Shown: positions 6,341 to 55,766, counted from the first letter of the stretch. The stretch is 64,000 nt of DNA from Lophium mytilinum (GCA_010093605.1 MU004182.1:1273032-1337031); one strand, 5' to 3'. The notes: generated by a model from the sequence alone, not told the origin. Made by a program: numbers and translations.

Positions 6341-6714
6341 GTTGAGAGTGGAAGTTGAAACAAAGTGGTGGTTTGGAGAGATAGATCGCGTTGCCGTGCC
6401 TTAGCGCGGGGTGAACATGAATCGCAGTGATGTCGGGGCAAATCCCAGCTCCATCAACAACAAATCGCATTCTACCCCCCGGGCGTCATTCACCATTTAC
6501 GCCGTAGTACAACGCTATATAGAGAATTACTACTGCAGACCTGCCCATCCTCTACCTCGCATTCGCCGCGATCAAAGCGTTGCCCCGCCAGAGCTATCTC
6601 CCTTGGTCCCGCTTCAAGGCCACCACCGCTCAATCGCACTTCCTCCACCCACGATTCGAGAAGTCGTTTCGAGACACATACACTTGATTCTGTTGGGAGG
6701 CTTTCGCAGACAGC

Positions 6715-16820: not shown

Positions 16821-16925
16821 TGGTGCTCCCTGCGATTCTCATACAAAGTTTAGTGAGGAACGCGGAGATATCGGTGCCAAGGATTGTACGCTATTTCGCA
16901 CCCGACAAATGCCGAGGCCTGCTTC

Positions 16926-16950
16926 CCGATCTCTCCCCGACCTCTCCCCG
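16926..16950 (-). promoter_or_regulatory. Two overlapping CGG-N8-CGG (CGGGG-N6-CGG) putative Zn2Cys6 sites
   Basis: CCG ATCTCTCC CCG ACCTCTCC CCG upstream of the FAH gene. The same motif occurs in the other cluster promoters. Confidence 0.7.
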
Positions 16951-17094
16951 ACGAGGAGTGCATTGGGTCCAAATCGTGTTGCAAGATGTGTCTTCAATGG
17001 TTAATCCTGCTTCTGATTTAGGAATAAAGCATGAGAGCAGAACTGCGAGTTTTTCTCACGTGCAAGTCGCCCTGCATTCGTTCCATTGTCAATT

Positions 17095-18207
17095 ATGAAA
17101 GTTGTCTGGGAAAGGCTCATTCGCTTCGTCACAACGGACGGCCGCGTTCTGCGTGGAGACCCGATTCTGCCGTCGCCAGACTTCGACCTGGGCAACACCA
17201 CTGAAGAAACGAAACTCCAAGCACATGTCATCGCCGGCTCGGATCCCTATGACACCACTGGGTATACAAGGGTTACAGACGAAGTTGTCACCGTGAAGCA
17301 ACTATTAGGTCCGCTTGCACAGGACGATGTAGACATCCTGCGCTGTATAGGATTGAATTACGCGAAGCACAGTATGTCGCGCACCAGGATTTCATCTGAG
17401 GTCGTGTAACGAAATACAAAAATTGTCGCTCAAGTTCCTCGTTATGTGATTCAATGCTAAATGGTCACGCAATCTTTAGTTAAAGAAGCAGGCCGAAGCC
17501 CGCCCCCTTTCCCGTCCGTATTCTTCAAACCCTCGACATGCATCCAGGACCATGGGGCCAATGTGATTGTGCCAAAGATTGCCCAAGATGATCAAGCGGA
17601 TTACGAAGGTGAACTAGTACGTATGAGAGTTCTTCTTGAGCAGGTTTTCATCCCGCTGACTTGTTTACACTTTAGGCGATAGTCATTGGCAAAAATGCCA
17701 AAAACGTCTCGACAGAAGATGCTTTAGATTACGTTGCCGCCTACACCTGCGGCAACGACATCTCTTCGCGCAAGCTGCAACGTGATCCTGCGTTTGCAGG
17801 ACGAGTCCCTCAATGGGGATTCTCGAAAGGCTTCGATACATTTGCGCCAATTGGCCCATGTCTGGTCAATCCCGAGCTCATCGGCGACCCGAAGAAATTG
17901 CTGCTGAAGACGATAGTCAATGGGGATACAAGACAAGAAGAATATGTGGATGATTTGCTCTTTGATTGTGCCTACCTCATCTCGTACCTGAGTTCGGGCA
18001 CCACCTTGAAGAAAGGAAGCGTCATCATGACTGGAACCCCAGGAGGTAAGCTAGTCCAAACTTTTTGAGGGGGATAAACCAGCTGAACTATGAATATCAG
18101 GGGTTGGTGCCGGATTGAATCCGCCACAATATCTGGTTCCAGGAACAACGATGGAGGTGGTCATTGACAAAATCGGCACACTTCGCAACGGTGTTGAATT
18201 TGCATAA
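17095..18207 (+). CDS. Fumarylacetoacetate-hydrolase family protein (putative acylpyruvate hydrolase), multi-exon
   Basis: WERLIRF, LRCIGLNYAKH, PSVFFKPS, DYEGEL, GNDISSRKLQ, QWGFSKGFDTFAPIGP, TGTPGG. Confidence 0.92.
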
Positions 18208-18543
18208 TGAGATTCAAGATATTGGGTTACTTCTCCCATCGTTGTGTATATAGAATAGATAAATAGATACCACTTTAGTCGGTTGAGTCTGTCAAGCCGT
18301 ACGACTAACCTTGAGTTGATACTAAAGTGGACACATCCAACAGCCTGGCGAGACTATTTTCAAGTACACCTGTTACATGGGACCACATTCAGGGGCGCAC
18401 AGAACTAGGAACTTTATAGGTTTTTAGAGAGGTTAGCGTTAATATCACGAGTAATGTTTTGTCTTTATGGGCATCACGTCCTATCATTCAATGAACGTTA
18501 CCTTCGAGCCAGAATCGCCGCAGTATATAAAGTACAGCTCAAA

Positions 18544-19663
18544 CTACTCAGACACCAACGACTCGACGTCCACACCTTCCACACGGTAGAACCCTAACGA
18601 CTTCAACATCGGTTTGTCATCAAACGCATACAGATAGACATCTTCTCCCTGGTCGGCGGAGTGTTGGTACCTGAACCAAGCTGGGATGCAGAAGGTGTCG
18701 CCTTTCTTCCAAGCGATGACTTTGTCTCCAATTTTGGAGTAACCACACCCCTCGATAACGTGAATAACAGCGGATGAAGTCTCTTGAACTGCAGGCGAAG
18801 ATTTGCCTGGCGCGAGGCGTGCTGCCGAGCCGCCTAGGATCTTACTGACTATAGGGCATTAGCAAGTGAAACCAACGAAGACAGAGAGATCCTACCTTCG
18901 CTGCCATCGGCTTTCAGGTATGGCTTCGAGACCCAGTCTTTACCCTCAGCGTCAAGTGTTGCCCGCATGGTTGCCCAGGGGAAGACGATTGGCGATTTAG
19001 AAGTATCGATATCTTGGGCGGGGTATCGAGGCTGCGCAAAGTGCTCCACGAAATGTACCGGAAAGTGAACAAAGTTTGGCAGGTCAAGCCCATCAAGCCA
19101 GATCATGGGGCCTGAGCCGTCCTTGCCGTGGTCGTGCCAGTTCCACGTTGGAGTCAAAATAACGTCTCCACGCTGCATCTTGATTCTTCGGCCATGAACA
19201 GCCGTGAAGCCCCCGGTCCCTTCGATGATGAAGCGCATTGCAAACGCCGTATGGCGATGAGCAGGCGCAGTCTCGTTGGGCATAACAAGCTGGAGACCAG
19301 CATAGAGCGTGTCGGTCGTGAAAGGCGCATCTGACCGATTTTTTAGTTCATCTACCAGGCGTAGGGTACACGTATGGGAACTGCGTGTCTACCTCGAGCA
19401 GGATTGACGAGCATAAGAACGCGTCGTTCAGCCTGTTTTTCAGTGATCAATTCGCCAGCTCGTATGAGGTGCGGGCGGATTTCGTCATATTTCCAAATAT
19501 GTGGGATAGTTTTGGGATTTGGAAGAGGAGGGTTTAATCGAGCCATTTGATTCCAAAGCGGCTTCGTATAAGTTTGCTCAAGAACAGAAAGCAGCTCCTG
19601 GGTCTCGTGGTCCTTGGTGGAGATAGGAAGACCACCTGCTTCGGGTTGAGCGAGAGATGCCAT
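18544..19663 (-). CDS. Gentisate 1,2-dioxygenase (bicupin), multi-exon
   Basis: [65 protein letters not shown]. Confidence 0.93.
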
Positions 19664-19950
19664 AACGGAGGTTTTAGTCTTCTTCAGTCTGTGCACAGAA
19701 CAGATTCGACATTTGGCTGACCGAATTAGATATGTTCGCCTGCTAGAAATTGAGGAGGGTCAGTGAAATACTTCTTTTGTACCACGACTCCGATACCGAT
19801 GAGACGACTTATTCATCATCACTCTTCGCCGCGTTCTTTGTAGACCCTATAAGAATGCCTGTGACGTAGGGTTTCAAATATTACAGCGAAACACTTCGGG
19901 CGAGATGTCGTGCTACGATCAATCAGCCGACGAGCACGGAAGACGGGCAC

Positions 19951-19964
19951 CGGGGAGAGATCGG
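19951..19964 (+). promoter_or_regulatory. CGG-N8-CGG putative Zn2Cys6 site in the bidirectional dioxygenase/monooxygenase promoter
   Basis: CGGGGAGAGATCGG is the exact reverse complement of 16926-16939. Confidence 0.7.
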
Positions 19965-20276
19965 AAGTAGAGCGCGGGGGGACAACAACCGCGAGGATGT
20001 CGGCATTCGGACGGTCGCCGGGGAAAATCAGGCAAGCTTACTGCCAGAATGCACGAGTGCATACCACTTGAATTCACTAGATTTGGTGCCCTACTTTAGC
20101 CAACTCGCTCTAGAACTTTTACAGACATTTGTAGAAACAGGAGGAAGTGAGTACTGAAGGTTTTCCTGCCTCTTTTTTCTCGGCTCCCTCCCTTATTTAC
20201 TCGTTCTTTTCGTATTTTGAGGCCTTGCTGGTCTATGATCACGGTCCTCCTCTTAGATTGTATGTAAAAAATCCCA

Positions 20277-21982
20277 ATGGCGCTCATAATACGTGAACCA
20301 TCCTACCCTACACGAAGTCTACAATTTCTTCAGCAACACGCGATATCTGCTTCGCAAAATGGAGGCACCGGACATCCGGGTCCGATGCCTTCGGTTGAGG
20401 TACCACGGGCGGCTGTCCTACTGAACATCATAATTGTCGGAGCTGGCTTGGGAGGACTTTCAGCAGCTATTGCTTTATCCCGCCGAGGCCACATTGTAAC
20501 CGTTCTTGAGCAGGCTGAAGCACTCGGAGAGGCAAGCTCGTGTACAGTCCAGGTCGAGAGAGCTACTGCTGACATGCGCCAAAAGGTCGGAGCGGGAATT
20601 CAAATACCTTCGAATTCAACACGGCTTCTCCTGAATTGGGGATTAGGAGAATTTCTCGGCAGAAATGTTGCTGAGCCGGAAGCTATGAGTTTTTTGCGTT
20701 GGCAAAATGGCGAGAAGATTGGACACACGAAGCTAGTGCCAGACTTCCAAGAGAATTTTGGTGCACCGTACTACGTCGTGCACAGAGCGCATCTCCATGC
20801 TGCTCTATACAAATGTGCATTGAAGTTGGGAGTTACGGTGCACGTGGGGTGCAAAGTTGAAGCATATAGTGCAGACGCTGGGACTGTCCGATTAGCAAAT
20901 GGAGTCTCGTACACAGGAGACTTGGTAGTAGCCGCCGATGGTAATTCCGATATTGCGTAAAAGAGTTTGTTGGATTACAGTGCTAAATACCCGCAGGGAT
21001 TAACTCTATTGCTCGACGAGAAATTCTTAAGGAGAACGACATAAAGCCTACCGCAACTGGATTCGCTGTTTATCGTGCTACTGTTGATGTCGAAAAGATC
21101 AAAGCCGATCCGGAACTTGCGTGGATATTAGAAAAACCGTCTTTGAATATATGGTGGGTCTGGAAGTCCAACCTCATTCCAGTCTAACCAAATTGATCTA
21201 CTACTAGGATTGGAGAAGACAGACATGTCATGACCTATACAATTGCTGGCGGGAAATCATTCAACATGGTATTGTCGCACGTAGATCGCTCGAACCCAGC
21301 GACATGGAGAGCAGACACTGCCATTGAGGATATGCAAAGATACTTCCAAGGCTGGGATCCACGGTTCGTCATTCTCTGCCAGTAAAAGCTATACGCAATG
21401 ACTAATCTCGCGCCCTTAAGCCTAGTGAAGATTATACGGATGATAGACCAAACTATCAAATGGCCTTTGATGAACATACCCCCTCTCCCAAGATGGGTGG
21501 CGGTTTCCAATCGTTTACTAGTAATTGGCGATGCGGCACATGCCATGGTACCTTACATGTCTCAAGGAGCCGCAATGGCAGTGGAAGACGGGGCAGCCCT
21601 CGGTGAAGTTCTCAGCCTTATCAATCATCGTGCTCAGTTACCTTTGGCGCTAGCTGTTTTTGAGCAAGTACGTATGAAGCGCAGTTATCAGATGCAGGAA
21701 GCAAGTCTTCTAAATGGTAAGCTTTGGCATTTCTCGGATGGCCCAGAGCAGAAGGCGCGAGATAAAGCGATGAGACCTGAGGTAGAAGGGAAGCATTTCC
21801 TCTCCAGTGCGAATCAATGGAGTGATCCGGTAACACAATGGTGGGCATACGGGTATGACGCAGAGATTGAGGTAGCCAAAGAGTGGAGAAGTAGACATGC
21901 AGCTCTTGATTCTGTTCTGGGTGATTGTGGGAATGGACTCGAGAGGCTCAAGGTCAACGGCAATGACGCAAATGAATCCTAA
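20277..21982 (+). CDS. Group A FAD-dependent aromatic hydroxylase (salicylate hydroxylase / 3-hydroxybenzoate 6-hydroxylase-like), multi-exon
   Basis: IIIVGAGLGGL, VGAGIQIPSNS, DLVVAADG, IGDAAHAMVPYMSQGAAMAVEDG. Confidence 0.92.
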
Positions 21983-22730
21983 CTCCCGATTCACGTTTCT
22001 ATCTATCAATGCTTGTAAATCAAGTCTTTAACAGCGCAATTATATTCGCGCAAATATCACGAATGCTACAAATAGCGAGCACTGACATAAGTACGTAATG
22101 AATTGAACTGCCGGGTTAGTGTTGTCACACATTATAGTTACATACTAATCCATTTATTCATTGGAAGATCTAGGTAGAGAGTTAATCTTAGTAAGCGGGC
22201 GGAGCTTTTTGAGGCCTCTGAGGAGGAGAACTTTATTGATAAAGCCTTTGCAGATCTTCACGAGGTACTCCAGACCAATGGAAACCAATGGGACGAAGAT
22301 AATGAGCCTTCTTCAACGCCTAACGCAGGAAGATTGCGATACCTTCCATTTGAAGGACTGTACATGTAAGTACTCATCAACCCCTATACCCACCAGTGGC
22401 TCTTCTATGGTGATGGTACCTCCTAGCGGCGTCGTATTTGGTTATTGGAACCTCCACGTCAGATCGTGTGCTAAACCTAGGTAGCCACGGACATATAACA
22501 CGCACGTTGTACTATGTTAGAAGAGCCCTGCTTTCAGTGCCGAGATTCAGGTACGGTCACGTGGGATCACGTGGAATCAACGGTGATCCGCCAGTGTCAT
22601 TCCGGGGCCCCGCATCTCCTGAGCTCGCCTGTCCCTAACCCAAGGCGCGAGTCTGGCCTGGTCCAGGGATTTACCCCGCGATTTGAAATTTAGTATGGAC
22701 GTAGACTGTTTCATGAAGTGGGTTTCGCTC

Positions 22731-22744
22731 CCGATGGTTCCCCG
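22731..22744 (-). promoter_or_regulatory. CGG-N8-CGG putative Zn2Cys6 site
   Basis: CCGATGGTTCCCCG (reverse complement CGGGGAACCATCGG), ~125 bp upstream of the 22871 ATG. Confidence 0.65.
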
Positions 22745-22870
22745 CTGCTTGGTTTAGAATTCGTCCGGGCGGTCCGAATTTTAGATAGATTGAACAAACA
22801 TCAGGCTGATTTACCTCACCTACAACAGCAACGCTCTCATTGATTCGTTCCAAGAGATCACCTCGAAGTC

Positions 22871-23884
22871 ATGACGACCCTAAAACCGTCATATCGTTGG
22901 ATTCAAAAAAGAATCGAAACTCTGGACCCTTACAAGGACTATGAAGAGATATACAGACTGTCAGTCAGCTATGGCGGAAACGACTTCATCAACAACCTGA
23001 TCTACACCCTGATATTTCCGAATTTCGTGGTCACAGAGCATGGTGCTCGAGTTGTATGGCGCGAGGATGGCGGCAAAGTGTTTGCAGCAGCCACGGGACG
23101 AGTCGAGCAAACAGCAACAGCCAATGACACATGGTGGTACTACGGCCCCAGTGATCCCAGGACTCAGAAGTCGGTAGAGAAGATCAATAAGCTACACGAA
23201 TCCTGGGCCAAGCAGTATCCAGGCGACTTCTCGCACAACGACGACTACATCTATACTTTAGCATTCAGTGCTGTTTTCATGCATCGTCTGCGTCTCCGCT
23301 TGGGCCTTTGCGGCGTGTCTGAGAAGATCAAAATCGCCTCCTACATCTTCATGTCGGACATGGTCAAGCTTTTTTACGCCGAAGGCAGAGTGCCACTGAC
23401 CGACTGGCCTAATAGCTGGGATGGCCTCATCAAGTATTGTGAAGACTTCGAAAATCAGCCTCGCCCAGGTTCCGAACAGGGTCACCTCATTGCGTCCGCT
23501 ATTTATGAGCACTTTGCTTTTCGCTGGTTTCCACCTCCAATGCGCTGGCTCGGAAGGGCGATTCCGATATCACTGACTCTGCCCTCGACACTGGCGGCGC
23601 ATAAGGTCACCCCACCGAACCCTCTACTCAAAGCCATCATACTGTTTGCATTCGGCTGGCTAATATGGGTGATGGAAACCCTTGGTCCGGATCCTCAGTC
23701 GGCTTTTCTGCCCGAGCTTGAACAAATGTCCAAAACACAGCAGACTGAACGCGCAAAGGAACACAAGCAACTCGATCGCGCCTTTCCCTCATACTTTGCA
23801 GCTCGTCCAGGAAATCAGAGCATTGGTTGCCCCTTTCGCTCGAATATGAAGTTGCAAACATCAAAGGTTGTGGAAATGGAGTGA
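22871..23884 (+). CDS. MpaB/Lcp (rubber oxygenase, DUF2236)-like putative heme oxygenase, intronless
   Basis: RIETLDPYKDYEEIYRL, GRVEQT, KINKLH and SHNDDYIYTL match the recalled DUF2236/MpaB pattern. C-terminal hydrophobic segment and GCPF. Confidence 0.7.
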   Translation: MTTLKPSYRWIQKRIETLDPYKDYEEIYRLSVSYGGNDFINNLIYTLIFPNFVVTEHGARVVWREDGGKVFAAATGRVEQTATANDTWWYYGPSDPRTQKSVEKINKLHESWAKQYPGDFSHNDDYIYTLAFSAVFMHRLRLRLGLCGVSEKIKIASYIFMSDMVKLFYAEGRVPLTDWPNSWDGLIKYCEDFENQPRPGSEQGHLIASAIYEHFAFRWFPPPMRWLGRAIPISLTLPSTLAAHKVTPPNPLLKAIILFAFGWLIWVMETLGPDPQSAFLPELEQMSKTQQTERAKEHKQLDRAFPSYFAARPGNQSIGCPFRSNMKLQTSKVVEME

Positions 23885-24131
23885 TACATTGCCATACCTG
23901 GCGACTGATTTCATGCGATGGCATATGCTTTATATCTGTTCTAAGATTCGTTACACGGGAGCAGCTTTCATTGTTCAAACGATGGTCCGTATAATACAAA
24001 TACTGTACTCACCCGATATGCAAGCCATTTTAGCTGAGAGGATGAGGCTGGGTAGCTTCAATAGTGACAAGACCACATGATACCGCAAGTATATGTACTC
24101 GCAGGTGTGATAGACTGAGAAACGAAGCTTA

Positions 24132-26876
24132 CTAACCATGACCCCCATCTGGTGGAATAGCATTAGAAAGGGGTTGATTGATAGGAAAGTAATTCAAGAA
24201 GTCCAGATCACTCTCCATTATAAACTCGCCAAGATCCATGCCTAGAGGAGACTGGGGGTTTGCGTTCCCTGCCTGCGTCGGGATAGGCGTGATCTCACCA
24301 TGAGAGTTTAACAGGGCAGTGTCATTTCCAAGGGATAGAGGCTGTAGGGGCATGCCAGTTGGGGAGTCCGAAGCTGTGCGAGGCATTAGTATCTTGGTAA
24401 TCGGGGTTAGGACGAATGTGTCAAAACGACTTACCGAGTGATATTACTACATGGCCCAAGCGACTCAGGAATGTGGCACAGGTTTCCACCATGCTATTCC
24501 CTTTGTCAAGAAGCATCAGGGCGTCAACTGCTGCCTGTACGGGTCTCTCGGGTCCGCCTAACAAAGCTGGCAAAGATGTAGCAGCGCCAGTCAGACCAAT
24601 CTTCTGGTCGACTAGTATGCACGCAGATATCACAAGCCCTGCATTGAAGACTGATGAAAATTAGCTCGACAGTCTTTGGTCCGAACAGCAGGCTGGCCAA
24701 CGCACCATAGTAGAGAGAGAACCACCAAGCACCCAGATACTCATGGCGCACATCAGTCGAGTGAACTATGGTACTCACAATAGAGATGATCTCCAGTGAT
24801 GAGTGAGCACAGATCTGCACGCTGTTCAACCCAATTTGTCGGAGCAATGCGAGCTCCTGCTCGTCCCGGTCAGCCTTGCCACAAGTATCGAGGAATCGAA
24901 CCACCACAAGGCGGTGAATTAGAATGCGTAGGTTGTGATAACGTAAGGTTAGAATGATCCTGTAGCGCTCGGTATCGTCTTCTTCTGATAGAATCTCCTG
25001 AGATTTTCGGAGGGCCATGTTAGCTGGTAGAGAACGCTCCCACTCCATAAGCTGCTGTTCCATCTTGAACAGATATGCCATGAAGTCAAGAACGCTGGTG
25101 GATGATCCACAGCCAATGTTGGCCGCATAGAGGAGGTCTATCACGTTCCACATTACTTTGTAAAGCGTGCTGCTAGAAGTTAGTTGTGTTAGAAAAGTAC
25201 CTGAATATTGCCGCACATTGTCATGGTATAGAACAGGGTACTATTCCGCTTTCGTGGATCTACCGCCGAGTTGTCTGCAGCGATGCAATCGAAATCAACC
25301 GGCAGTTCCAATCTGACATAGCTGTCCGGGATTGCTGCAGGCCGACCAAAGGTCATGCTAAGTGTCCTAGATTATGTAATTATCAATACCTAAAGCCACA
25401 ACAACCGAACATTGGACAACCCACCTGTCTAAGATGACACAACCATACCATAGACGTTTGCTGGTTTCCCGTTCGATAGGTGACAGCTTTTCACAAGCTT
25501 CAGCCGAATGCAACCCGAGCTGCAGAGCGGCCTTGACGGCTAGTCCATGGATGTTCCAAGTTTGGGTAGACTTTTGAGTTCCTTGTAGATACTGCCCCAT
25601 CATGAGAAGATATTGGACTATATGAATGAAATCGTAAGTCTTTCTCGCGTGTTTTGGGATGATTTCGCAATGTGGTGCCGCAAGCAGTGGAACACTTACC
25701 CAGTTCTATACTTGCTCCTCGCCAGACGTGTTTATCACACAGACCAAGTGCCCTTCTATAATATACATCTGACATTTCTGCACGCTGTTCCGCACAGGTT
25801 CCGTTCGAGACAGTCGTGCTGATCGCAAAAGCCAGCACCATATTTAAGAGCCCTAGCCATGTTTTACGGACTTTTGTAAAGTCGGTTCTCTTCATGGCCC
25901 GGTACGTCTCTAGAAAGGTTTCTTCGTGCACATAAGGAAATAGCAAACCCGTGTTGGAGAAGTACCGGTGCACCAGGTCAAGGGTCTCGTCTTCTGGCGG
26001 TAAAGCGAAAAGATTCAACGGTTGGACTCTCAAATGGCGTAGACGCATGCTGTCCTGAGTTCTTGCTGGTGATGGGGGTCGAGACACTCTCATGAGTCCA
26101 CCATCCAAGTGCAGGCTTACGTGGGTGCCTGGCGTTGGATAAGTATGGTCGGTGTATGAGAGTCGGGCCACTGCTCGAGAGAGATGACGAGTGAAAGCGA
26201 TGTTTGATGAGGGGCCTATGCCCTCGTCAGTGACTCCTCAATTGACGGCATCATTACTCTGCGCATGTTCACCAAAGAAGCCGGAATACTCTTCATCGGT
26301 AAAGACGATTGCTCCCATGCCATCTGTCGAATCTTGGTTGGCACCATCATGTGCGTCTTCTTCGTTGGCACCATCATGTGCGTCTTCTTCGTCGACTGCG
26401 GCTAGTCCAGAACGGCGACTGGAGAAGAAAGGGCCCCGTTCTTCAGTGATACGCGCCTGTCTGCCCCGCCTCGTAGAGGAAGACGGGTGCAGTGGCGATG
26501 TATCGTGGCCGTTATCGACACCGTCCAGCCTCTGCTCAACATCTGACAGGCGATTCTCGAGTGCAGCAAGATAGCTATGGCAGCTGTGAGCAGTTGCATG
26601 CCAAAGATATACTGAGACGCTTACTCTTTCCCCACTATCACATTCGAAGATGCGGCTGACGCCACGTAGATACAATCAAAATCCAACTCGTCGCACGTGG
26701 AGCATTGTGGTCGCCGACCATCGCACTGCGCAGCCGCATGCGATCAGTTGATGCCATTTTCAAGCGAGGTGAGGCAAAAAAGGGGTCGTTACCCGAGACT
26801 TCCGCGTGCGACACGCCTGGCAGGCCAATGCGATGCGCCGCCTCTTGCTGGTGCTGCTTCTCCCATCTGCATCCAT
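24132..26876 (-). CDS. Zn(II)2Cys6 transcription factor with fungal-specific middle domain, multi-exon
   Basis: MDADGRSSTSKRRRIALACQACRTRKSR/CDGRRPQCSTC, DSTDGMGAI, GPSSNIAF, LAVKAALQLGLH, RLWYGCVILDR, LGAWWFSLYY. Confidence 0.93.
26337..26390. repeat. Perfect 27-bp tandem duplication inside the TF coding region
   Basis: GTTGGCACCATCATGTGCGTCTTCTTC x2, encoding EEDAHDGAN twice on the minus strand. Confidence 0.95.
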
Positions 26877-26999
26877 CGCTCGGCGGGTCTGATCAGAAAG
26901 AGATGCCGGCCGATGTGAGCTGTTCGTCGGACGTGCTGGGCGCAAAGTGCCCACGGTGCCCAAGTGGGGTTCGAGGACTGCCCTCGGGTAGGTGTCCGC

Positions 27000-27013
27000 C
27001 GGGGAAACGGCGG
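27000..27013 (+). promoter_or_regulatory. CGG-N8-CGG site upstream of the TF (possible autoregulation)
   Basis: CGGGGAAACGGCGG, ~125 bp upstream of the TF ATG. Confidence 0.55.
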
Positions 27014-27374
27014 ACTTAACGTTGCCATCCGAGAGGGCCAGGCGGCACGGGGACTCGGCAGTCAACAACAAGCGCCACAAATTTATTTCATTGGTGATGT
27101 GGCTCCATCAACGCCTCCAACAATCCCTAAAGGAGCAGGTTGCGATAGGAATACTATTAGAGACGTCTTCTTCTCTGTGAACACCTACAGCAGCCTTCCA
27201 TACGAACGTGCAAGCCTCGACAGTCCCGAAAATGTGGAGTTCAAAGCGTGGAGGAACACGTCAACATCTGCAGCTTCGCGGTGGCTCGAATTGCAAGCCA
27301 TTGAGGGCAAGACGAAACTGATTTCAATGTAGTCCTTTCCGGGCCTTCGAGCACACATCCCACCTCTCTATCTC

Positions 27375-29142
27375 TCATTTTGACGCTCGTAGGCCTACGC
27401 GCACGTTGCACTCTATGACCTTGACAAAGAAGCCTTCCCGGGACTCTGACGGCACGGAAATGGTACGCTCAAATTGGAACAGACGGAATATTGTTGCAAG
27501 AGTCTTCAACATCTCCATCCATGCAAAACTGCGTTTTGTTAGCACTACCGCCTACCCATCGAGCGCCATGTGTCTGTGCTTACTTTCTACCGACGCAAGC
27601 TCGTGGTCCTGTTGAGAAGGGCACGAAGTAATTCGTCAAGTCACTGGCATCCTCCACAAGCCAGCGCTGAGGATCCAGCTTTTCTGGGTTCTGTACCGTC
27701 ATTAGAACCTGTGCTACCAACGTTGCAGGAGCACATACACGATATATTTGGGTGTTGTGATGGATCGCGACTGTCGGCACACTGACCAAAAACCCTGCCG
27801 GTATAAATGTGCCAGCCACCACCCTACCTCCCTCTGGAACCACGCGCTCAAGACCAGTAGAACTCGTTGGTCTCAAGCGCATCACCTCTTTGAGCGTGGC
27901 GTTGAGAAGACGCAATTTGCCTGAGACCTCTTCTGATGCGACCCAATCAGAATCTTGCGACCCAGGGAAGGCTTCCAAGAGCTCCGTATAAATATCAGCC
28001 TGGAGCTTTTGGTCTCGAGAAACAAAGTCCATGAAGTTGGTCATTGTGCTGCTTGTCGTATCACTGCCGCCAACAATGAAGCTGATTGCCTCAGCAAGGA
28101 TTTCCTTGTCGGGAAGTCGATCACCAGTATCAGGGTCTTTAGCGTTGAGTAAGAAACTCATCAAGTCTTTACGCGCGGTGGAAGTATCTTCCTTGCGCTT
28201 GCCAAACGCCGCTCGCCCAATAGCCTCTAGACTCGCCGTTGATCGGAGACCTTTGTAAAAGAATGGATCAATGCGAACATACTTCATATACGGCCGCATC
28301 CAACGAGGCAGATGCCCCATTGCGTTCAGAACCTCTCCGCGGGTATCGATTGTGTGGATCAAATTGTAATCGTCACGTCCAGATTCCAGGAATCCAAATG
28401 GGCTTCCAAAAGAATACTCGCCAATGACATCGAAAGCCAGAAAGTTCGCTGTCGAAGTTAGATACATGGGAGTGGCTTAGGAAGAGGTAGACATACACCA
28501 ACGGCAAAAGTCAAAAGACTTGGACTCAGTGACACATTTTTGCATGTATTGCACGAGCCTTGTGATGCTAGGATTCATGTGCTCTTCAAAGTCCTGCAAA
28601 TTTCTTGCTGAGAATGCCGGACTGACATATTTCCGTTTCCTTTGGTGTATACTCATGTCACGGGTATTGAACAAGACAGGCTCTATTTGATTAAAGGGTG
28701 GACAGGGTCAGTTGTGGAATCCAAAAGCCTTGGTGGTAGGAGCCTTATCTTCATAAAAGGGACCTTTCAGAAATCCCGTCTTGTGTCCATATATTTGATT
28801 GAGAGCCTGTGGATCGGCAATAGAAACATGATCGGGGGCTATCCGCACAAAGACACCATGCTTCTCATGCTGCTCTAGAATCCAAGCGGACCTGCGGGCT
28901 TTCCGACATTGAATAATGAGCGGTAAAGGGCAAATTTTGGACCAGAAGGATCCTGGGAGGCGTCGCAAGGGATGAAGAGCAACCTGGTATAAACAGTAGA
29001 CTGTCTAAGAGTAGGATCAGCTAGAGTGTCTAATGTCGAGCTACTTCACACTCACAACTAGAACAGGTACGATCAAAATAAGCATTGAAAGGCTTGTGGA
29101 CACCCATGAAAGGAAAGCAGTAAGAGTCATTTTCAGGCTCAT
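27375..29142 (-). CDS. Cytochrome P450, CYP53 (benzoate hydroxylase)-like, multi-exon
   Basis: N-terminal TM segment, FVRIAPDHVSI, FNTRD...RKRK, FDVIGEYSFG, GGSDTT (I-helix), KEVMR (ExxR) and heme motif FSTGPRACVG. Confidence 0.93.
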
Positions 29143-29447
29143 TTTTTCGGAAGACCAAAGATACATGCTTCTGCCTGGCACAGCTACACAAAAAATAGTG
29201 GGCTTGATCAAAAGTAAGAATGCGGACCTGTGCTTATGACTTGATTTATATCTTCACAGATGCCTTGTCTGGTTGCAGGGGCTATGAGCCAAAGGACCGA
29301 TTGTGAATGCCTGTTCACCTATTGGAGTAGATGCGGGGTCATTGCTAGCGGTAGACATCTGTGAGTACGGGGGTCTGATCCATGTTACTCCGCACCCCAG
29401 ATTCAGTGGTGCACGGAGGTTGGGGAAAGTGCGGGGAGCGGGAAGCC

Positions 29448-29461
29448 CGGGGCTAGATCGG
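29448..29461 (+). promoter_or_regulatory. CGG-N8-CGG putative Zn2Cys6 site upstream of the P450
   Basis: CGGGGCTAGATCGG, with a near match TGGGGAAAGTGCGG at 29421-29434. Confidence 0.65.
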
Positions 29462-30019: not shown

Positions 30020-30900
30020 GGCTCAGTGCAACTCATGGAAGCCAGATTCGCCCGCACCTTGTGCTGTCAAATCTCTCCCCTTGCATAACGCCGTGGATTA
30101 GCAGTCTCCGATAAGTTCGTACGCTTCGCCTTTCCGTCGTAGAACATATGGAACTCGTCCACCTTCTAAAAGCGCCAGGCAGTCACCTTTCTCCACGTTC
30201 CTGGGACCTAGACCAATGTATCTGTCGTTGGTAATAAACATGCTTCTTCCGTATGACAACTGGACTGACTCGTCGCTCGCAACAGGGCGGTGGGCCCTCA
30301 GAATACGGACCCTCATATCTTTGAAGACCACCCATGCGCAGAAGTAAGCGATCCAAATGAGTGTACAATCCATGACTCCTGACGGACCTATCCAATGTCC
30401 AATAAACTGCTCCCACTCTTTACGGGCTTCTTCTCTGTGATCTTTATTGTCGGAGGACCGGCCGCACGTAAACTCCTTCCAGAATACTTCAGACATGTCT
30501 TCACCGTTAACGTACGTTTTCATGAAAGCGCGCACCGATTTGGTGACGCCAATTTTTCCATGCTCCAGGCATGGTATACGATTAAATGAGACACCGGCTT
30601 ACCTAACCGAGACTTGACATTAAGAATTTTCCCACGCCACAACGTTAATCGAATTTCTTGAAATTGCATTAGGGTATGCATGTGCATTCCGCGAGTATCC
30701 CGTAAATTTTTGGAGGTGTGCATCCTTTGTCGTGGCATTAAATACGTTGAAAAGCGTCGTACTCTTACCATTTTGGAAGTGTCTCATTTAATCGTATACC
30801 ATGCCTGGCTCTTAAGTTTCTGCTTGCAAAGGCGAGCTGAAGTCCACTTTCAAGGCTAGCCTCTCTGGGACTAGTTTCGGCTTCCTGGCTCTCAGCCCTT
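30020..30900 (-). pseudogene. HET-6-like gene relic (3' part), frameshifted and interrupted by a MITE
   Basis: GRSMFITNDRYIGLGP...GDCLALLEGGRVPYVLR...YELIGDC then TAA. Restoring one base (TAC) gives the canonical CYIHGVMQGE. Confidence 0.85.
30566..30807. mobile_element. MITE-like element (242 bp) with perfect 29-bp TIRs and a GCTC flanking duplication
   Basis: CAGGCATGGTATACGATTAAATGAGACAC at 30566-30594, its exact reverse complement at 30779-30807, and GCTC on both sides. Confidence 0.88.
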
Positions 30901-31002
30901 CAATTCATCCTGAGGTCCCCGTCAGCCTCCATCCCCAAGGACCCACACCACAGTTCGCATCGTTCTTGCTCCGAAGGCTTGCTCAGAGCTATAGTTTATG
31001 CA

Positions 31003-33846
31003 TCAGGCCCATCGAAAGACTCTCCAAAAAGTTGATTGTTGACCCCGTTGGTTCTTCACAACCTCATCCATCCTGGTCAGTAGCCTCGCTGCGTCATCAC
31101 GCTGAAACACCATCTCTAATATCTCCTTCCCGCTCAAGTTACTCTTATATTTTGGTGTGTGTCCAAGCTTCCTGACCTGGTTCACAAATTTGACGGCTGG
31201 GTCCGCCCCGTGTTCCACCATCGTCTCCGCCGCCCCATACCAGGTACTCTTCACGTGCGCGGAGACCAGATCAGCGTTCTCAAAGCACGACAACAAGAAA
31301 AGGGCCCAAACACTCTCGCCGCGATAAATTTGCACTTTCTGATTTGGATCTGAGCCGGATTTCAGGAGGGCTTCCACCATTTTTACGTTTATATTCAAAT
31401 CCTGGTACATATGTTGATGTGGAAGCTCTGCGAGGGTACCGCGCATCGGTCTTAGTGCGTAGTCCAGTAACGGACGTCCACGCTTCTGGAATATGATCCC
31501 TTGGTTGGCTTCAAGCTCCTTGGTGACGTAGCAACGTAGCCGTGCTTGGATGGCTAAAGACAGGAAGCTACACTGCCCGTAATCCCGAAGCGTGGCGCTG
31601 GGCATTTTGATCCTATCTCGGGAGTTTGTCCAGTGCACTTTGGAGTCATTTGCGTGGAGCGTCATGACGCGGTCTAGCTCGTTGACTAGAGCAGTGTTGG
31701 AAGACGCAATTTGATGCTCAATTTCGCGAGCGTAGTGGAGTAACTCGTCGACCAGACCGAAAAGTTGATTCAATCGGTCCAGCGAATCCGTTGGTCCCGG
31801 GAGCGCCTTGATGAGGGCAATGAGCACACTGCATAGGGTTTTTCGCGCGTTGAAGTCGGCCGAAAGGCGATTTCGCAGCTCGCTATGGTAGTTGTCTCGC
31901 AGAAAGTCTCGAACAGTCCGATGAAGGAAACCGACTTTGTACTTGAGGAAAGTCCCGTCGTAAGGATAGATGTTTACCTCGAGAAGGTCTCTGCAGCGGC
32001 TGTTCAGAAGTTTCCTCCATCTCTTTACCGAGCTAACTACCTCGTCGTCAGACACGGGTGACATTGCCAACTTGAGAGCAAAATCTGGGCTCTCATGTTC
32101 CATATGCAAATATTTTAGCGCTAGGACTGGAAATGGTCGCACGGCTTCCACGGCAGTGAGAAATATCATCGCCGTCTCTTCGCGGTAGATCTTATCAATC
32201 CGACCTAGTATATCCTCAAAGTACTTCTCTAGCTCTTCTGGAAAGCTATCCAGCCTACGCTGCAGAAAAGGGTACTCTTCCTCGCCCTTGAGATCTCTTA
32301 AAAGATCTCGAACAACCAGGTAAACCCAGAGCCAGACTCCGTGAGCTTTCCCTGCAATCTGCGGCACGAGAGAGTTGCATCGGGGGTCCTGTTTAGCAAC
32401 TCGGGCAAAGGTGGGATCCTTTGCCAGCAGGTTGTGTACATACTCTCGCATATCGTCCCTAGTAAGATCTTCTAGGACCAACTTCCACTTGCTTTGGTCA
32501 AAGGCGTCTATGAAGGCATTCCAAGGCCGACTAGACACACAGAGTTTGATATTCTGAGATTTAGTAAGTCCTTGTAGAAGACCGATGATTTCTTCATTAT
32601 CACCCTCATACTCATCTAGGCCATCCACAAAGAAGCAAAATTTCGTCGGCAGAATGGTCTGTTTGGCGATGATCTCAAGGGCGTTGGAAAGCTCCTGAAA
32701 TCCCCAAGGGCCATCATGCGACAAACAGGCCTCGAATATCAGTACTGGACATGCAAGTAGTATCTGATATAGTAAGCTCTGTAGTAGCCCAACCTGGGAT
32801 TTTTGCATCGGTAGTCCAGGATTCCAGAAGAAGTAGCTTGCAGTTACAAGCTTTTGAGGTCCAGCCCACTCGTGAAGCTCCCTTAGAGTAAGGTTATTGC
32901 CACAGATGTACTTCATAAGCGTAGATTTGCCGCTTCCAGCCTTTCCTTTCACCCAATATATACCATTCTCCGACTTCAACCAGTCCATGAATCCGGTTTC
33001 GGGCTTCCTAAAGATCCATGCCAAGGTCTGTTCGTGGGCGTCTTTGATCTTTTCCTGGCGCTGCTTCATCGAATCGAAGATCAAGCTTGCGAGGATCCTT
33101 TGCTCCCGTTCTACCCTCTTCCCAGCATCAGCAAGAGCAGCCAGCTTCTGCCATAGGCTGTCTAGTACCACTGTATTGCTTGTAAAGGGTTGTGGCCGTT
33201 CGTTGAGGGCAACGATAACATCCGCTTTCAGTTGGTCGAGTTGTAATGTTGCGTTGATCTTCATGCGCTCATTTGTTTGGCAAAGGGTCTTGATCGCCGA
33301 GAGAACCTCAGAATGGTTGTTCCTTGGGGTTTTTATCAGCATTGATGTAAAACCAACCACATTGTAACTCATTGTAGAATCCACCTACTTTTGAAGCATG
33401 CTTGATATTCTAGATCGCAAACGTTCGTCAATACCCAGTAATCTCTGCTGCAGCTCCTGTATGTCCCTCCTTTTCCCCACACCCCTGAGGGTCTGCCTCA
33501 CCGTCGCTAATCCCCGGAATCGCGCATCCTTCGCGACTTTCAAATCTTCTAAGATTTCTAGTAGCTTGTCCGCCAAGGGCTCGCATGCCTCGGCTAGCTT
33601 CCTAAGCGCTTTTTCATCATTCGACAGTGGCCGTGGGAGCTCCTCGGACCCGTTCTTAGTCTTGGATTTCGCCTCCTCAACAAGGGTTTTGATGTCTTCG
33701 ATGATGATCTCGAGCTCGTGGTGCTCATCACTCGTGCCATGGTTCGCCTTATAGACGTCTTTTCCTTCGGAGATCAGCTTGATACCGTGGCTGACGAATT
33801 GCGCAATGTTCGCGGCGATCCCGAGAACAATGAATGCTTCGGCCAT
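31003..33846 (-). CDS. NACHT-domain NLR-like (STAND) protein with fungal N-terminal helical domain (2 exons)
   Basis: N-terminus MAEAFIVLGIAANIAQFV, Walker A WVKGKAGSGKSTLMK, YFFW, Walker B FCFFVDGLDE, KLCVSSRPW, GVWLWV, FLHRTVRDFL. Intron near 33326-33389. Confidence 0.92.
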
Positions 33847-34017
33847 ATTCCGTAGTTTGATATTGCAGAGTGAGGATAATTAGACCGACGCCATCGTATT
33901 TGAGGAGCGCCGAGGATATGACACATTCTCCGGTTCGCAAGGCTGTGACCGGTGAAGGTTTGAAGGTTGGCCAAGAGTACTTTAGCAATCACGCATACGT
34001 GTGCCAATTAGGGGCCG

Positions 34018-53676: not shown

Positions 53677-54169
53677 GGCTGCTACGGTTTGAAGCACAAG
53701 ATAGAAGTGTGTAGGAGGTGCTCTGAAAGAAGTGTCGATGATGCTATTGCTCTATTACTTTGATACTACCGAGGCCAAGGCGGGTTGCTGCAGAAAGCGG
53801 GGCTGTTGCGGGAACTAGGTTGCTTGAGGCTTAGGTATGTACAGAAATCCTGGTTCCTGGTTGTTACGGGCTAGGAAGGCTATAGAGATTATTCCTACGG
53901 CGATTGAGATAGGAGGCGCATGATGACGAGCAGGTGGACGGGACAGCAAGCGCAGTGATGGAGGTTCACCAGCTGGCAAAAGCAAAGGGGCAGGAACTCA
54001 GCCACAGATAACGTAGGGCTGAAACAAGCATGGGGCTTGGTTGCATCTCACGTGCCAAGACCGATCGCGCTCCGATTCGCTCGAGTCTTTTCGCAACGTC
54101 AACAGGTCGAGTCACAACTCGGTCGATGCCACTCAATCTCTCCTTGTCAACAATATCGTTCACAGCAAG

Positions 54170-55766
54170 ATGGAGTCATCCGCATTGCTTCACTACCCCC
54201 TCCCGTCTGATGCAGGCCTGAAAAATCAATATGTTGGCAGGAAAATTAGCGAAGTGGCCGCACCCGCAGCGATTATTGATCGAGCTGTCGCGAAGCGGAA
54301 CTGCGAGGCGATGCTTGAAGTGGCTAAGAGGCTGAATGTGGGCTTCCGGGCACACATCAAGACTCACAAGGTATATAGAACTCACCTGCATCTCTCGCGG
54401 TAGACTAGCGAAAGTGATTACCTATTTAGTTTGGTTGATTGCGTAGGAACCAATTATAGTGCTGACCCGTGTGATTGCAGACAACTGAGCTGTCTCGGCT
54501 TCAGGTGGGTAACACTGGGCCGGCTTCAATAATTGTATCGACCGTCATGGAGCTCGAGCAACTGTTGCCCCTACTCCGAATATTGCAAGTGGAAGGAAGA
54601 GATTGTAGTGTAAGCAAAATGCCCTCGATGATATGGGTGCGCCTGAAGAAACCCAATTAATTACTTCATAGGTGCTCTATGGAATGCCACTGCCTCCATC
54701 GAACGTGCAACGCTTGATGAGTCTTGCCAAAAAGCTGAAATCTCTGACCATTAACGTTCTCATCGATCATCCCGACCAAGTGGAACATTTCAGTCAAACC
54801 TCTTTCAAAGAACCTGACACCAGGATTGGAGCCTTCATCAAGGTTGATACTGGGTATCACCGCTCGGGTGTCGCGCCAGAAAGTGCAACCCTTAAAACCA
54901 TCGTCGACGGGATCATGACAGCCGACTGTCTCGTTTTGAGTGGCTTCTACAGCCACCTTGGCCACAGCTATGGCGGGAACTCGGCCGCTGAAGCTATACA
55001 GGGACTGATTCATGAGATTAGGTCTACCAAGGAGGCAGTAGATTTAGCCTGTGAGGGCCTAAAAGTGCAGAACAGGCTGACAATATCAGTCGGGGCGACA
55101 CCAACTGCGACAGCAGTCCAAAACATATTGATGAAGAGCGACCCTGCAGCCGATGAAGCTCGCAAAGTGATTGAGCAAGTAGCCGCGACATGCCATCTCG
55201 AACTTCATGCTGGCGTCTACCCGCTGCTAGATCTCCAACAGCTCGCAACACACGCACGCCCAACTGAGGTACCCGGTGATCTTGGCGAGAGCTCCAACGC
55301 CGTTGCACCGCTATCTGTGGAAAATATTGGGCTCCGTATGCTTGTCGAGGTGGCAAGCCTTTACGATGATCGAGGGACTCCCGAGGCGTTGATTGGGGCT
55401 GGTACGCTAGCATTGGGAAGAGAACCATGTAAGAGCTACCCAGGCTGGGGCATCGTCACGCCTTGGGAGGATAGCACTGCGGCAGATGATGATAGGCAAT
55501 TATTCTTCCAAGAAGCGTCGCCTGTTTACGACGAAATAGGCCGGACTGGATGGATTGTTGGAAGAATAAGTCAAGAGCACGGAATCCTTGTGTGGCAAGG
55601 CGACCAGCAAAATAAGAGGAAGCTCCGTGTTGGCGAAAAGCTCCTGGTCTGGCCCAACCATGCTTGCGTGGCCGGGGCTGGGTCTGGGTGGTATTTAGTC
55701 GTCGATTCAGACGAGCAGGATCCGGACAGGATTGTGGACGTCTGGGTAAGATGGCGGGGTTGGTAG
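54170..55766 (+). CDS. DSD1: D-serine dehydratase (fold-type III PLP enzyme), 3 exons
   Basis: FRAHIKTHK (PLP Lys), FIKVDTGYHRSG, YSHLGHSY, ELHAGVY, SQEHG, PNHAC. Confidence 0.92.

Follow-up and report, generated by a model that had tools for sequence, protein, structure and literature searches.

A conserved CGGGG-N6-CGG element in the promoters of a gentisate-type catabolic cluster of Lophium mytilinum, and the cluster's Zn2Cys6 regulator as its likely binder

We analysed a 64,000-nucleotide stretch of Lophium mytilinum DNA (GCA_010093605.1 MU004182.1:1273032-1337031), referred to throughout as the window, and a short element, CGGGG-N6-CGG, found in the promoters of a catabolic gene cluster within it. 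The cluster encodes an FAH-family hydrolase, a gentisate 1,2-dioxygenase (GDO), a FAD-dependent hydroxybenzoate hydroxylase (FMO), an MpaB/Lcp-family oxygenase, a Zn2Cys6 transcription factor (TF) and a cytochrome P450. The element occurs far more often than expected by chance, and orthologous clusters of many other Pezizomycotina retain it, with its position and spacing conserved. Sequence comparison makes it likely that the binder is the cluster-encoded Zn2Cys6 regulator, a member of the ctfG/Gtf1 family, for which the element would be an activator site.

Occurrences of the element in the window

The pattern CGGGGN6CGG has eight matches in the window, where 1.43 are expected; 1 of 100 dinucleotide shuffles reached eight. 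Six of the matches lie inside cluster promoters, at coordinates that a sequence-only reading of the window had given, and our pattern search confirmed all six. Since promoters of the cluster make up 2,613 bp of the 64,000 bp, the binomial probability of such a distribution is 1.2e-7. Five of the six promoter sites match the stricter form, CGGGGN5TCGG, exactly, and the window has no other exact match to it. The sites are placed 130-320 bp upstream of six start codons. Hence, the claim that every promoter of the cluster carries the motif holds, for five promoter regions that serve six genes, each region having one or two copies. The motif had also been read as a direct repeat, CGG-N8-CGG. The arithmetic is correct, since N6 after CGGGG is the same as N8 after CGG. 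The matches are listed below, with scores from a position weight matrix (PWM) that is described in the next section and distances measured from the ATG.

16926-16939, minus strand: FAH promoter site, CGGGGAGAGATCGG, at about -163; PWM score 21.2, higher than at any other window position
16937-16950, minus strand: second FAH promoter site, CGGGGAGAGGTCGG, at -152; PWM score 19.5
19951-19964, plus strand: site in the divergent GDO/FMO promoter, CGGGGAGAGATCGG, at -294 (GDO) and -320 (FMO); PWM score 18.6
22731-22744, minus strand: promoter site of the MpaB-like gene, CGGGGAACCATCGG, at -134; PWM score 18.5
27000-27013, plus strand: variant site in the TF promoter, CGGGGAAACGGCGG, at -130 from the TF start; PWM score 17.6, sixth in the window
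29448-29461, plus strand: P450 promoter site, CGGGGCTAGATCGG, at -288; PWM score 20.6
19202-19215, minus strand: extra CGGGGN6CGG match within the coding exon of the gentisate dioxygenase, unlisted in the sequence-only reading
53798-53811, plus strand: extra CGGGGN6CGG match outside the cluster, likewise unlisted
29419-29437, plus strand: weak second match in the P450 promoter, GTTGGGGAAAGTGCGGGGA, in a CGG-rich stretch; PWM score 10.8, which is background level

The two FAH promoter sites overlap by one CGG. This produces three in-phase CGG triplets at 11-bp intervals. Aligned with their flanks, the sites give the consensus (C)CGGGGA-N4-TCGG(G/A)A, and both orientations relative to the downstream gene occur. 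The P450 promoter also contains CGGGGAG at 29432. A near-match at 16861-16874, CGCGGAGATATCGG, was dropped because its PWM score is below 10.

We used an unbiased enumeration of dyads so that the pattern was not chosen after being seen. Of the 5+3 dyads separated by 0-10 bases, just two were shared by the five promoters: CGGGG-N6-CGG and a one-base-shifted version of it, GGGGA-N5-CGG. In 40 Markov shuffles, no dyad was ever present in every promoter. These results bear on whether the matches are a product of chance, or of the duplication of a promoter fragment. In favour of such an origin, one 14-mer, CGGGGAGAGATCGG, is identical at two of the sites. The flanks of the two copies are unrelated, however, and the dyad was recovered independently in 13 other clusters. 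We give this origin almost no credence, and the chance reading is refuted.

The same element in orthologous clusters

Alignment with TF homologues led us to 71 metagenome loci. Of these, 69 form 39 independent groups, defined by at least 90% nucleotide identity in the TF exon; L069 and L070 were excluded from the grouping, having no TF-exon match. Thirteen independent loci have FAH, GDO or FMO homologues beside the TF. These supplied 30 promoter regions, or 16.4 kb, with the window excluded. Note that L059, L035, L047, L038 and L049 are not among the 13, since they have only a distant FMO-like neighbour. The background for enrichment was the 64-kb window together with the fetched loci.

In the foreign promoters, the top 5+3 dyad is again CGGGG-N6-CGG, present in 15 of the 30 regions, whereas shuffles reached 6-7 at most. 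Among 4+4 dyads, GGGG-N5-TCGG leads, with 14 of 30. Comparison of orthologous promoters, which the sequence-only reading had proposed as a check, has thus returned the same top dyad from 13 independent clusters. The dyad has a density of 1.04 per kb in these promoters (17 in 16.4 kb) and 0.045 per kb elsewhere in the same loci (9 in 201 kb), a 23-fold difference (p = 1.3e-13; 13 loci). For the strict form, CGGGGN5TCGG, there are 12 occurrences in promoters and two elsewhere. At least one exact promoter site is found in 10 of the 13 loci. The spacing is sharply defined, with 17 matches at N6 versus 0-3 at each other spacing between 0 and 13. For the inverted arrangement of the CGG pair, there was no peak. 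Position is similarly constrained: seven loci, like the window, have the FAH site between -134 and -234 from the ATG.

The PWM was trained only on the 17 foreign sites, with the window excluded. Applied to the window, it ranks the six promoter sites first to sixth of 127,964 positions, with scores of 21.2-17.6. The next score, 16.3, is at 55671, where the second CGG is missing. Thereafter, scores are no higher than 12.9.

Other patterns typical of Zn2Cys6 proteins were tried as alternatives and rejected. The Hap1-type pattern, CGG-N6-CGG, is enriched 2.5-fold in promoters and the Gal4-type pattern, CGG-N11-CCG, 1.4-fold, compared with 23-fold for CGGGG-N6-CGG. The motif of the yeast regulator Gtf1p, GGA-N7-TCC, has no occurrence in the five promoters of the window; in the orthologues its density is 0.73 per kb, versus 0.46 per kb elsewhere (p = 0.09).

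The sequence-only reading had placed the P450 and the Lcp-like gene in the same regulon, and had suggested autoregulation. Other loci lend support to both proposals. The gene set of L043 is nearly that of the window (FAH, GDO, FMO, MpaB-like, P450 and TF). Its P450 homologue, of 49% identity, has a site, CGGGGGTAGATCGG, at -398, where the window has CGGGGCTAGATCGG. For its MpaB homologue, the FAH promoter sites are common to both genes. Similarly, an MpaB homologue in L060 (50% identity) sits beside a TF homologue and has CGGGGAACTATCGG approximately 200 bp upstream. These sites are consistent with both oxygenase genes belonging to the predicted regulon. Promoters of the TF gene carry the site in the window (-130), in L036 (-180), in L050 and L043 (common with GDO), in L015 and L053 (common with FAH), and in L035, L037, L063 and L067. 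The window's copy is a weaker variant, still sixth of the 127,964 positions, and a variant like it, CGGGGACACGGCGG, is upstream of the TF in L067. Given this recurrence, the site at 27000-27013 is a candidate autoregulatory site.

Two further observations concern related loci. In L026, a strong site at 6445-6463, CGGGGATGTATCGG, is just 5' of a minus-strand gene of the RPE65 family (carotenoid/stilbene dioxygenase), which is of the sdoG type of gentisate clusters. Separately, P0076 of Paecilomyces variotii, a 1177-aa protein catalogued as a P450 monooxygenase, combines a p450 with a Fungal_trans domain. This is probably two neighbouring genes merged in annotation, and hints that P450-TF adjacency recurs in Eurotiales.

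The likely binder and competing readings

Zn2Cys6 proteins bind CGG triplets at fixed spacing (PMC10954478). Because CGG triplets at fixed spacing are the grammar of that class, we assign the motif to it. The TF of the cluster carries a six-cysteine cluster, C-X2-C-X6-C-X6-C-X2-C-X6-C, a 14-residue linker and a heptad-like stretch, the DNA-binding domain being followed by YLAALENRLSDVEQRL. In yeast, the homologous regulator Gtf1p is an established activator that binds promoters of a gentisate cluster (PMC8929692). The site also accompanies homologues of this protein outside gentisate clusters. Strong sites occur 158-242 bp upstream of such homologues in L035, L037, L063 and L067, and the promoters of non-gentisate TF homologues, 7.4 kb of a total of 262 kb, hold 4 of the 11 matches scoring at least 14 (p = 1.8e-4). 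Furthermore, a promoter site scoring at least 14 is found in 10 of 10 clusters with a DNA-binding domain of the window type, and in none of the three whose domain is divergent (Fisher p = 0.0035, with no correction for relatedness). Because of these sites at non-gentisate homologues, and the association with domain type, we take the element to follow the lineage of the TF and not the pathway. The inference of the sequence-only reading, that the motif is the site of the cluster's own TF, is supported by the comparison as a whole: the motif is the top dyad in 13 TF-homologue clusters, is enriched at N6 only, recurs at TF homologues elsewhere, and is absent where the domain diverges.

Several observations weigh against binding by the cluster's own regulator. 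Three of the 13 orthologous clusters, L014, L051 and L068, have no dyad in their promoters. The site in the window's TF promoter departs from the consensus in its second half, where GGCGG replaces ATCGG. One of the 17 sites used to train the PWM (L050, 1096) is coding sequence for the KRRRIPV basic stretch of the TF. The verified motif of the yeast homologue, GGA-N7-TCC, differs from the element, does not occur in the promoters of the window and shows no enrichment in those of orthologues. Seventeen of the 23 promoter sites also fit the CreA/Mig1 pattern, SYGGRG, by virtue of the C or G that precedes CGGGG, so that these bases may also serve a second protein. Finally, the site at 19951-19964 is at the end of a spliced RNA contig containing the leader of GDO (the end position being summed from contig tables). 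For GDO, this site may therefore be in the transcribed leader, or promoter-proximal, rather than well upstream, although contigs cannot define the start of a transcript.

The fit to SYGGRG raises the prospect that the site, or its CGGGG half, belongs to a C2H2 repressor of the CreA/Mig1 type and serves carbon catabolite repression rather than the cluster TF. There is precedent in Candida parapsilosis, where SYGGRG sites are present in glucose-repressed gentisate and 3-oxoadipate promoters (PMC8929692). Such a reading leaves the second invariant CGG, the T before it and the sharp N6 spacing unexplained. Nor does it explain why the site tracks the TF lineage, and is present at TF homologues in other contexts. 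In addition, 6 of the 23 promoter sites do not fit SYGGRG. We consider it improbable as a replacement for the TF, while competition between a CreA-type repressor and the activator, at overlapping bases, is possible.

If the site at 19951-19964 is transcribed, the motif might instead be a core-promoter signal, or an RNA signal in the 5' untranslated region, acting near or within the transcript start rather than as a classical upstream activator site. The contig with the GDO leader contains this site, but contigs cannot be used to place transcript ends. Both orientations relative to the gene are found, which favours a strand-independent element acting at the level of DNA, and one site serves two divergent genes, GDO and FMO. 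We regard a signal of this type as very improbable. As regards the leader itself (19664-19964, minus strand), it reaches at least 19964, is at least 246 nt long when spliced, has an intron at 19717-19771 and includes three upstream ATGs. There is almost no cover from 19965 to approximately 20118, as reckoned from bin depths; note that gaps in cover are not evidence of transcript starts. The same applies to contig ends, such as that of the FAH contig, whose first position, 16958, is 8 nt beyond the two sites.

The TFs of the three clusters without the dyad, with those of two more loci of the same TF lineage (L051, L068, L059, L038 and L014 in all), have a divergent DNA-binding domain with the pattern KR(N/H)RI...ACTxCR...SAC..H..C. 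Promoters of these clusters have no direct repeat. They carry CGGGGAG(T/A)T(A/G), with nine occurrences in 4.9 kb of promoter and two in 52.8 kb elsewhere, for a pattern that was chosen after the sites were seen. One sequence of this type is CGGGGAGTTAAG. Because CGGGGAG is kept where the direct repeat is absent, we take the first half-site to be common to both lineages, and the second half to vary with the protein.

This pattern, picked post hoc, in which (T/A)T(A/G) replaces the second half, also speaks for a different arrangement of proteins. Recognition by the TF could be limited to the extended half-site, CGGGGA(G), with the protein bound as a monomer or paired with another partner. In that event, TCGG would be contacted by another Zn2Cys6 protein, in a heterodimer, or would be a second, independent monomer site. 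Heterodimers and binding to a single CGG are documented for the class (PMC10954478), and weak binding of AmyR to one CGG is also on record (PMC4943734). A homodimer on a direct repeat, on the other hand, fits the fixed 11-bp register, the in-phase triple array of the FAH promoter and the heptad-like stretch after the linker. Moreover, a Pfam scan of long open reading frames (ORFs) detected no second TF gene in the cluster. We think half-site recognition unlikely and continue to favour the homodimer of the cluster's own TF.

A broader proposal is that homologous Zn2Cys6 regulators of one cluster type have had their site architecture rewired at least twice. The series would comprise the CGGGGA-N4-TCGG direct repeat in the window's lineage, a single CGGGGAG(T/A)T(A/G) in the divergent-domain lineage, and the inverted GGA-N7-TCC of yeast Gtf1p. 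We advance this tentatively, as an idea with somewhat less than an even chance of being right. If true, it would provide a natural series in which changes in linker and dimer re-specify the orientation of the half-sites, while the first half-site and the regulon stay.

The cluster, a proposed mechanism and related systems

Gene models were built from Pfam matches on long ORFs, manual and scripted splicing, and the spliced contigs of run X1. Labelling this run as RNA is a guess; its contigs span 15 listed GT..AG / CT..AC introns, and were used for gene models only. The genes are as follows.

17095-18207, plus strand: FAH-family hydrolase, fumarylpyruvate-hydrolase-like; 296 aa, three introns taken from spliced contigs; PF01557
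18544-19663, minus strand: gentisate 1,2-dioxygenase (GDO); 336 aa; Cupin_2; PDB 2D40 (E = 4e-37) and 3BU7 (E = 6e-33)
20277-21982, plus strand: FAD-dependent hydroxybenzoate hydroxylase (FMO); start at 20277 or 20385; FAD_binding_3
22871-23884, plus strand: MpaB/Lcp-family oxygenase, homologue of trans-anethole oxygenase; PDB 8S1J (E = 1.8e-47, residues 6-282)
24132-26876, minus strand: Zn2Cys6 TF; 755 aa, eight introns; PF00172 and PF04082 on the identical database protein P0001
27375-29166, minus strand: cytochrome P450; PF00067; an automatic, uncertain exon model with unconfirmed introns

The solved structures nearest to the FMO are decarboxylative vanillate 1-hydroxylase (8X38) and 4-hydroxybenzoate decarboxylating hydroxylase (8GSM), with E of about 1e-34. 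The MpaB-like gene scores 22.9 bits against Pfam PF09995 (MpaB_Lcp_cat), just below the cut-off of 23. The TF exon has an identical counterpart among the annotated proteins of Lophium mytilinum, and the next relative, from Mytilinidion resinicola, has 87% identity. In the window, the TF has a tandemly duplicated acidic stretch of nine residues (EEDAHDGAN twice, 26340-26400, minus strand) that is single copy in the Mytilinidion orthologue.

Judged by its gene content, the cluster is of the fungal gentisate or gentisate-like catabolic type with a C6 factor. Membership is indicated by the clustering of hydroxylase, GDO, hydrolase and C6 factor, and by matching neighbours in the 13 independent loci. 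Presence of a maleylpyruvate isomerase distinguishes the full gentisate type, and its absence the gentisate-like type. No GST-like ORF for such an isomerase was seen among 26 ORFs between 12 and 34 kb, in a survey that did not extend to small exons.

Some features of the transcript contigs call for comment. The spliced contig of the TF mRNA extends to 23310, so that it overlaps about 575 bp at the 3' end of the coding sequence of the convergent MpaB-like gene. The overlapping part, 23310-24132, is either a long antisense 3' untranslated region of the TF or overlapping convergent transcripts. Another X1 contig matches the window to 16912 and then continues with unrelated letters, and bin depth across 16857-16912 is above what contig 1 explains; a repeat, a chimera or another transcript are possible causes. 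In the P450 region (27393-29010, minus strand), one contig is unspliced, although introns are required by the reading frame. Possible causes are intron retention, an unlisted joint or a wrong model. At the right edge of the cluster (30101-33879, minus strand) are an NLR-like gene, with a SesA N-terminal domain, NACHT and DUF7791, and one ORF without a family.

We propose that the motif would function as the upstream activating site of this gentisate-type cluster. By analogy with Hap1 and AmyR on direct repeats, the two CGG half-sites, 11 bp apart, would be contacted in tandem, on one face of the helix, by the two zinc clusters of a TF homodimer. Specificity would come from the purines 3' of each CGG (GGA, then GA/AA) and from the T that precedes the second CGG. 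In response to an aromatic inducer, the TF on its site would co-activate the hydroxylase, the gentisate dioxygenase and the hydrolase, which form the lower pathway. The same activation would extend to the MpaB/trans-anethole-oxygenase-like gene and the P450, as two upper-pathway oxygenases, and to the TF gene. We infer TF binding, the inducer and the sign of regulation.

Four known systems are relevant. The Hap1 homodimer binds a direct repeat, CGG-N6-CGG, asymmetrically (solved complex 1HWT). The direct CGG repeat is shared, and the DNA-binding domain, linker and coiled coil of Hap1 align with residues 11-80 of the window TF (E = 2e-5). The spacing, however, is 6 rather than the 8 of the window, and the alignment is no better than to Ppr1 or Gal4.

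The AmyR site of Aspergillus amylase promoters, CGG-N8-(C/A)GG, is closer in form and is bound by the Zn2Cys6 activator of a catabolic regulon (PMC4943734). Hence, AmyR has in common with the window a direct CGG repeat, an 8-bp spacer, an activator of the same class and a catabolic regulon. AmyR differs in preferring T at position 5 of the spacer, whereas the window motif has GGA after the first CGG and T before the second. Pathway and regulon differ as well. Named database relatives of the window TF are C6 factors without characterised function.

Gtf1p of Candida parapsilosis activates a gentisate cluster through GGA-N7-TCC, as documented by binding in electrophoretic mobility shift assays and by a regulon from RNA-seq of the knockout, and it has relatives in Pezizomycotina (PMC8929692). 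That cluster, like the one in the window, combines hydroxylase, gentisate dioxygenase and fumarylpyruvate hydrolase with an in-cluster Zn2Cys6 activator, and the motif is upstream of cluster ORFs. Unlike the direct repeat described here, the Gtf1p site is an inverted GGA/TCC repeat. In addition, GTF1 itself has no site upstream in the published account (PMC8929692), whereas the TF promoter of the window has one.

Fungal gentisate catabolism (GC, gentisate-like) clusters with a C6 factor, ctfG, have been described by Greene et al. 2014 (PMC3914699) and Martins et al. 2021 (PMC7842363). Their core genes and in-cluster C6 transcription factor are as in the window. In place of the stilbene dioxygenase and aldehyde dehydrogenase of the others, the window has the MpaB/trans-anethole-oxygenase-like gene and the P450. 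With regard to a cis-element, the word 'motif' has no occurrence in the available text of PMC3914699, and the available passages of PMC7842363 contain nothing relevant. A wider search, in which subscription journals were mostly not covered, turned up neither an account of this motif nor one that characterises ctfG/Afu4g01510. The proposed site-regulator pair is new and its kind well known; we find it moderately surprising.

In the searchable literature there is no cis-element for gentisate clusters outside Candida. The element described here gives a concrete, testable regulon to a so far uncharacterised family of regulators found with gentisate-type clusters throughout the Pezizomycotina. Regulons of this kind can be annotated in other genomes by means of the weight matrix, and the 14-bp site can serve as a probe for binding or in reporters. 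Drawing the MpaB-like and P450 genes into one unit with the ring-cleavage genes suggests an upper pathway leading from propenyl- or methoxy-aromatics to hydroxybenzoate. If alkene-cleaving, the MpaB-like oxygenase of this cluster would take the part played by stilbene dioxygenase in other gentisate clusters.

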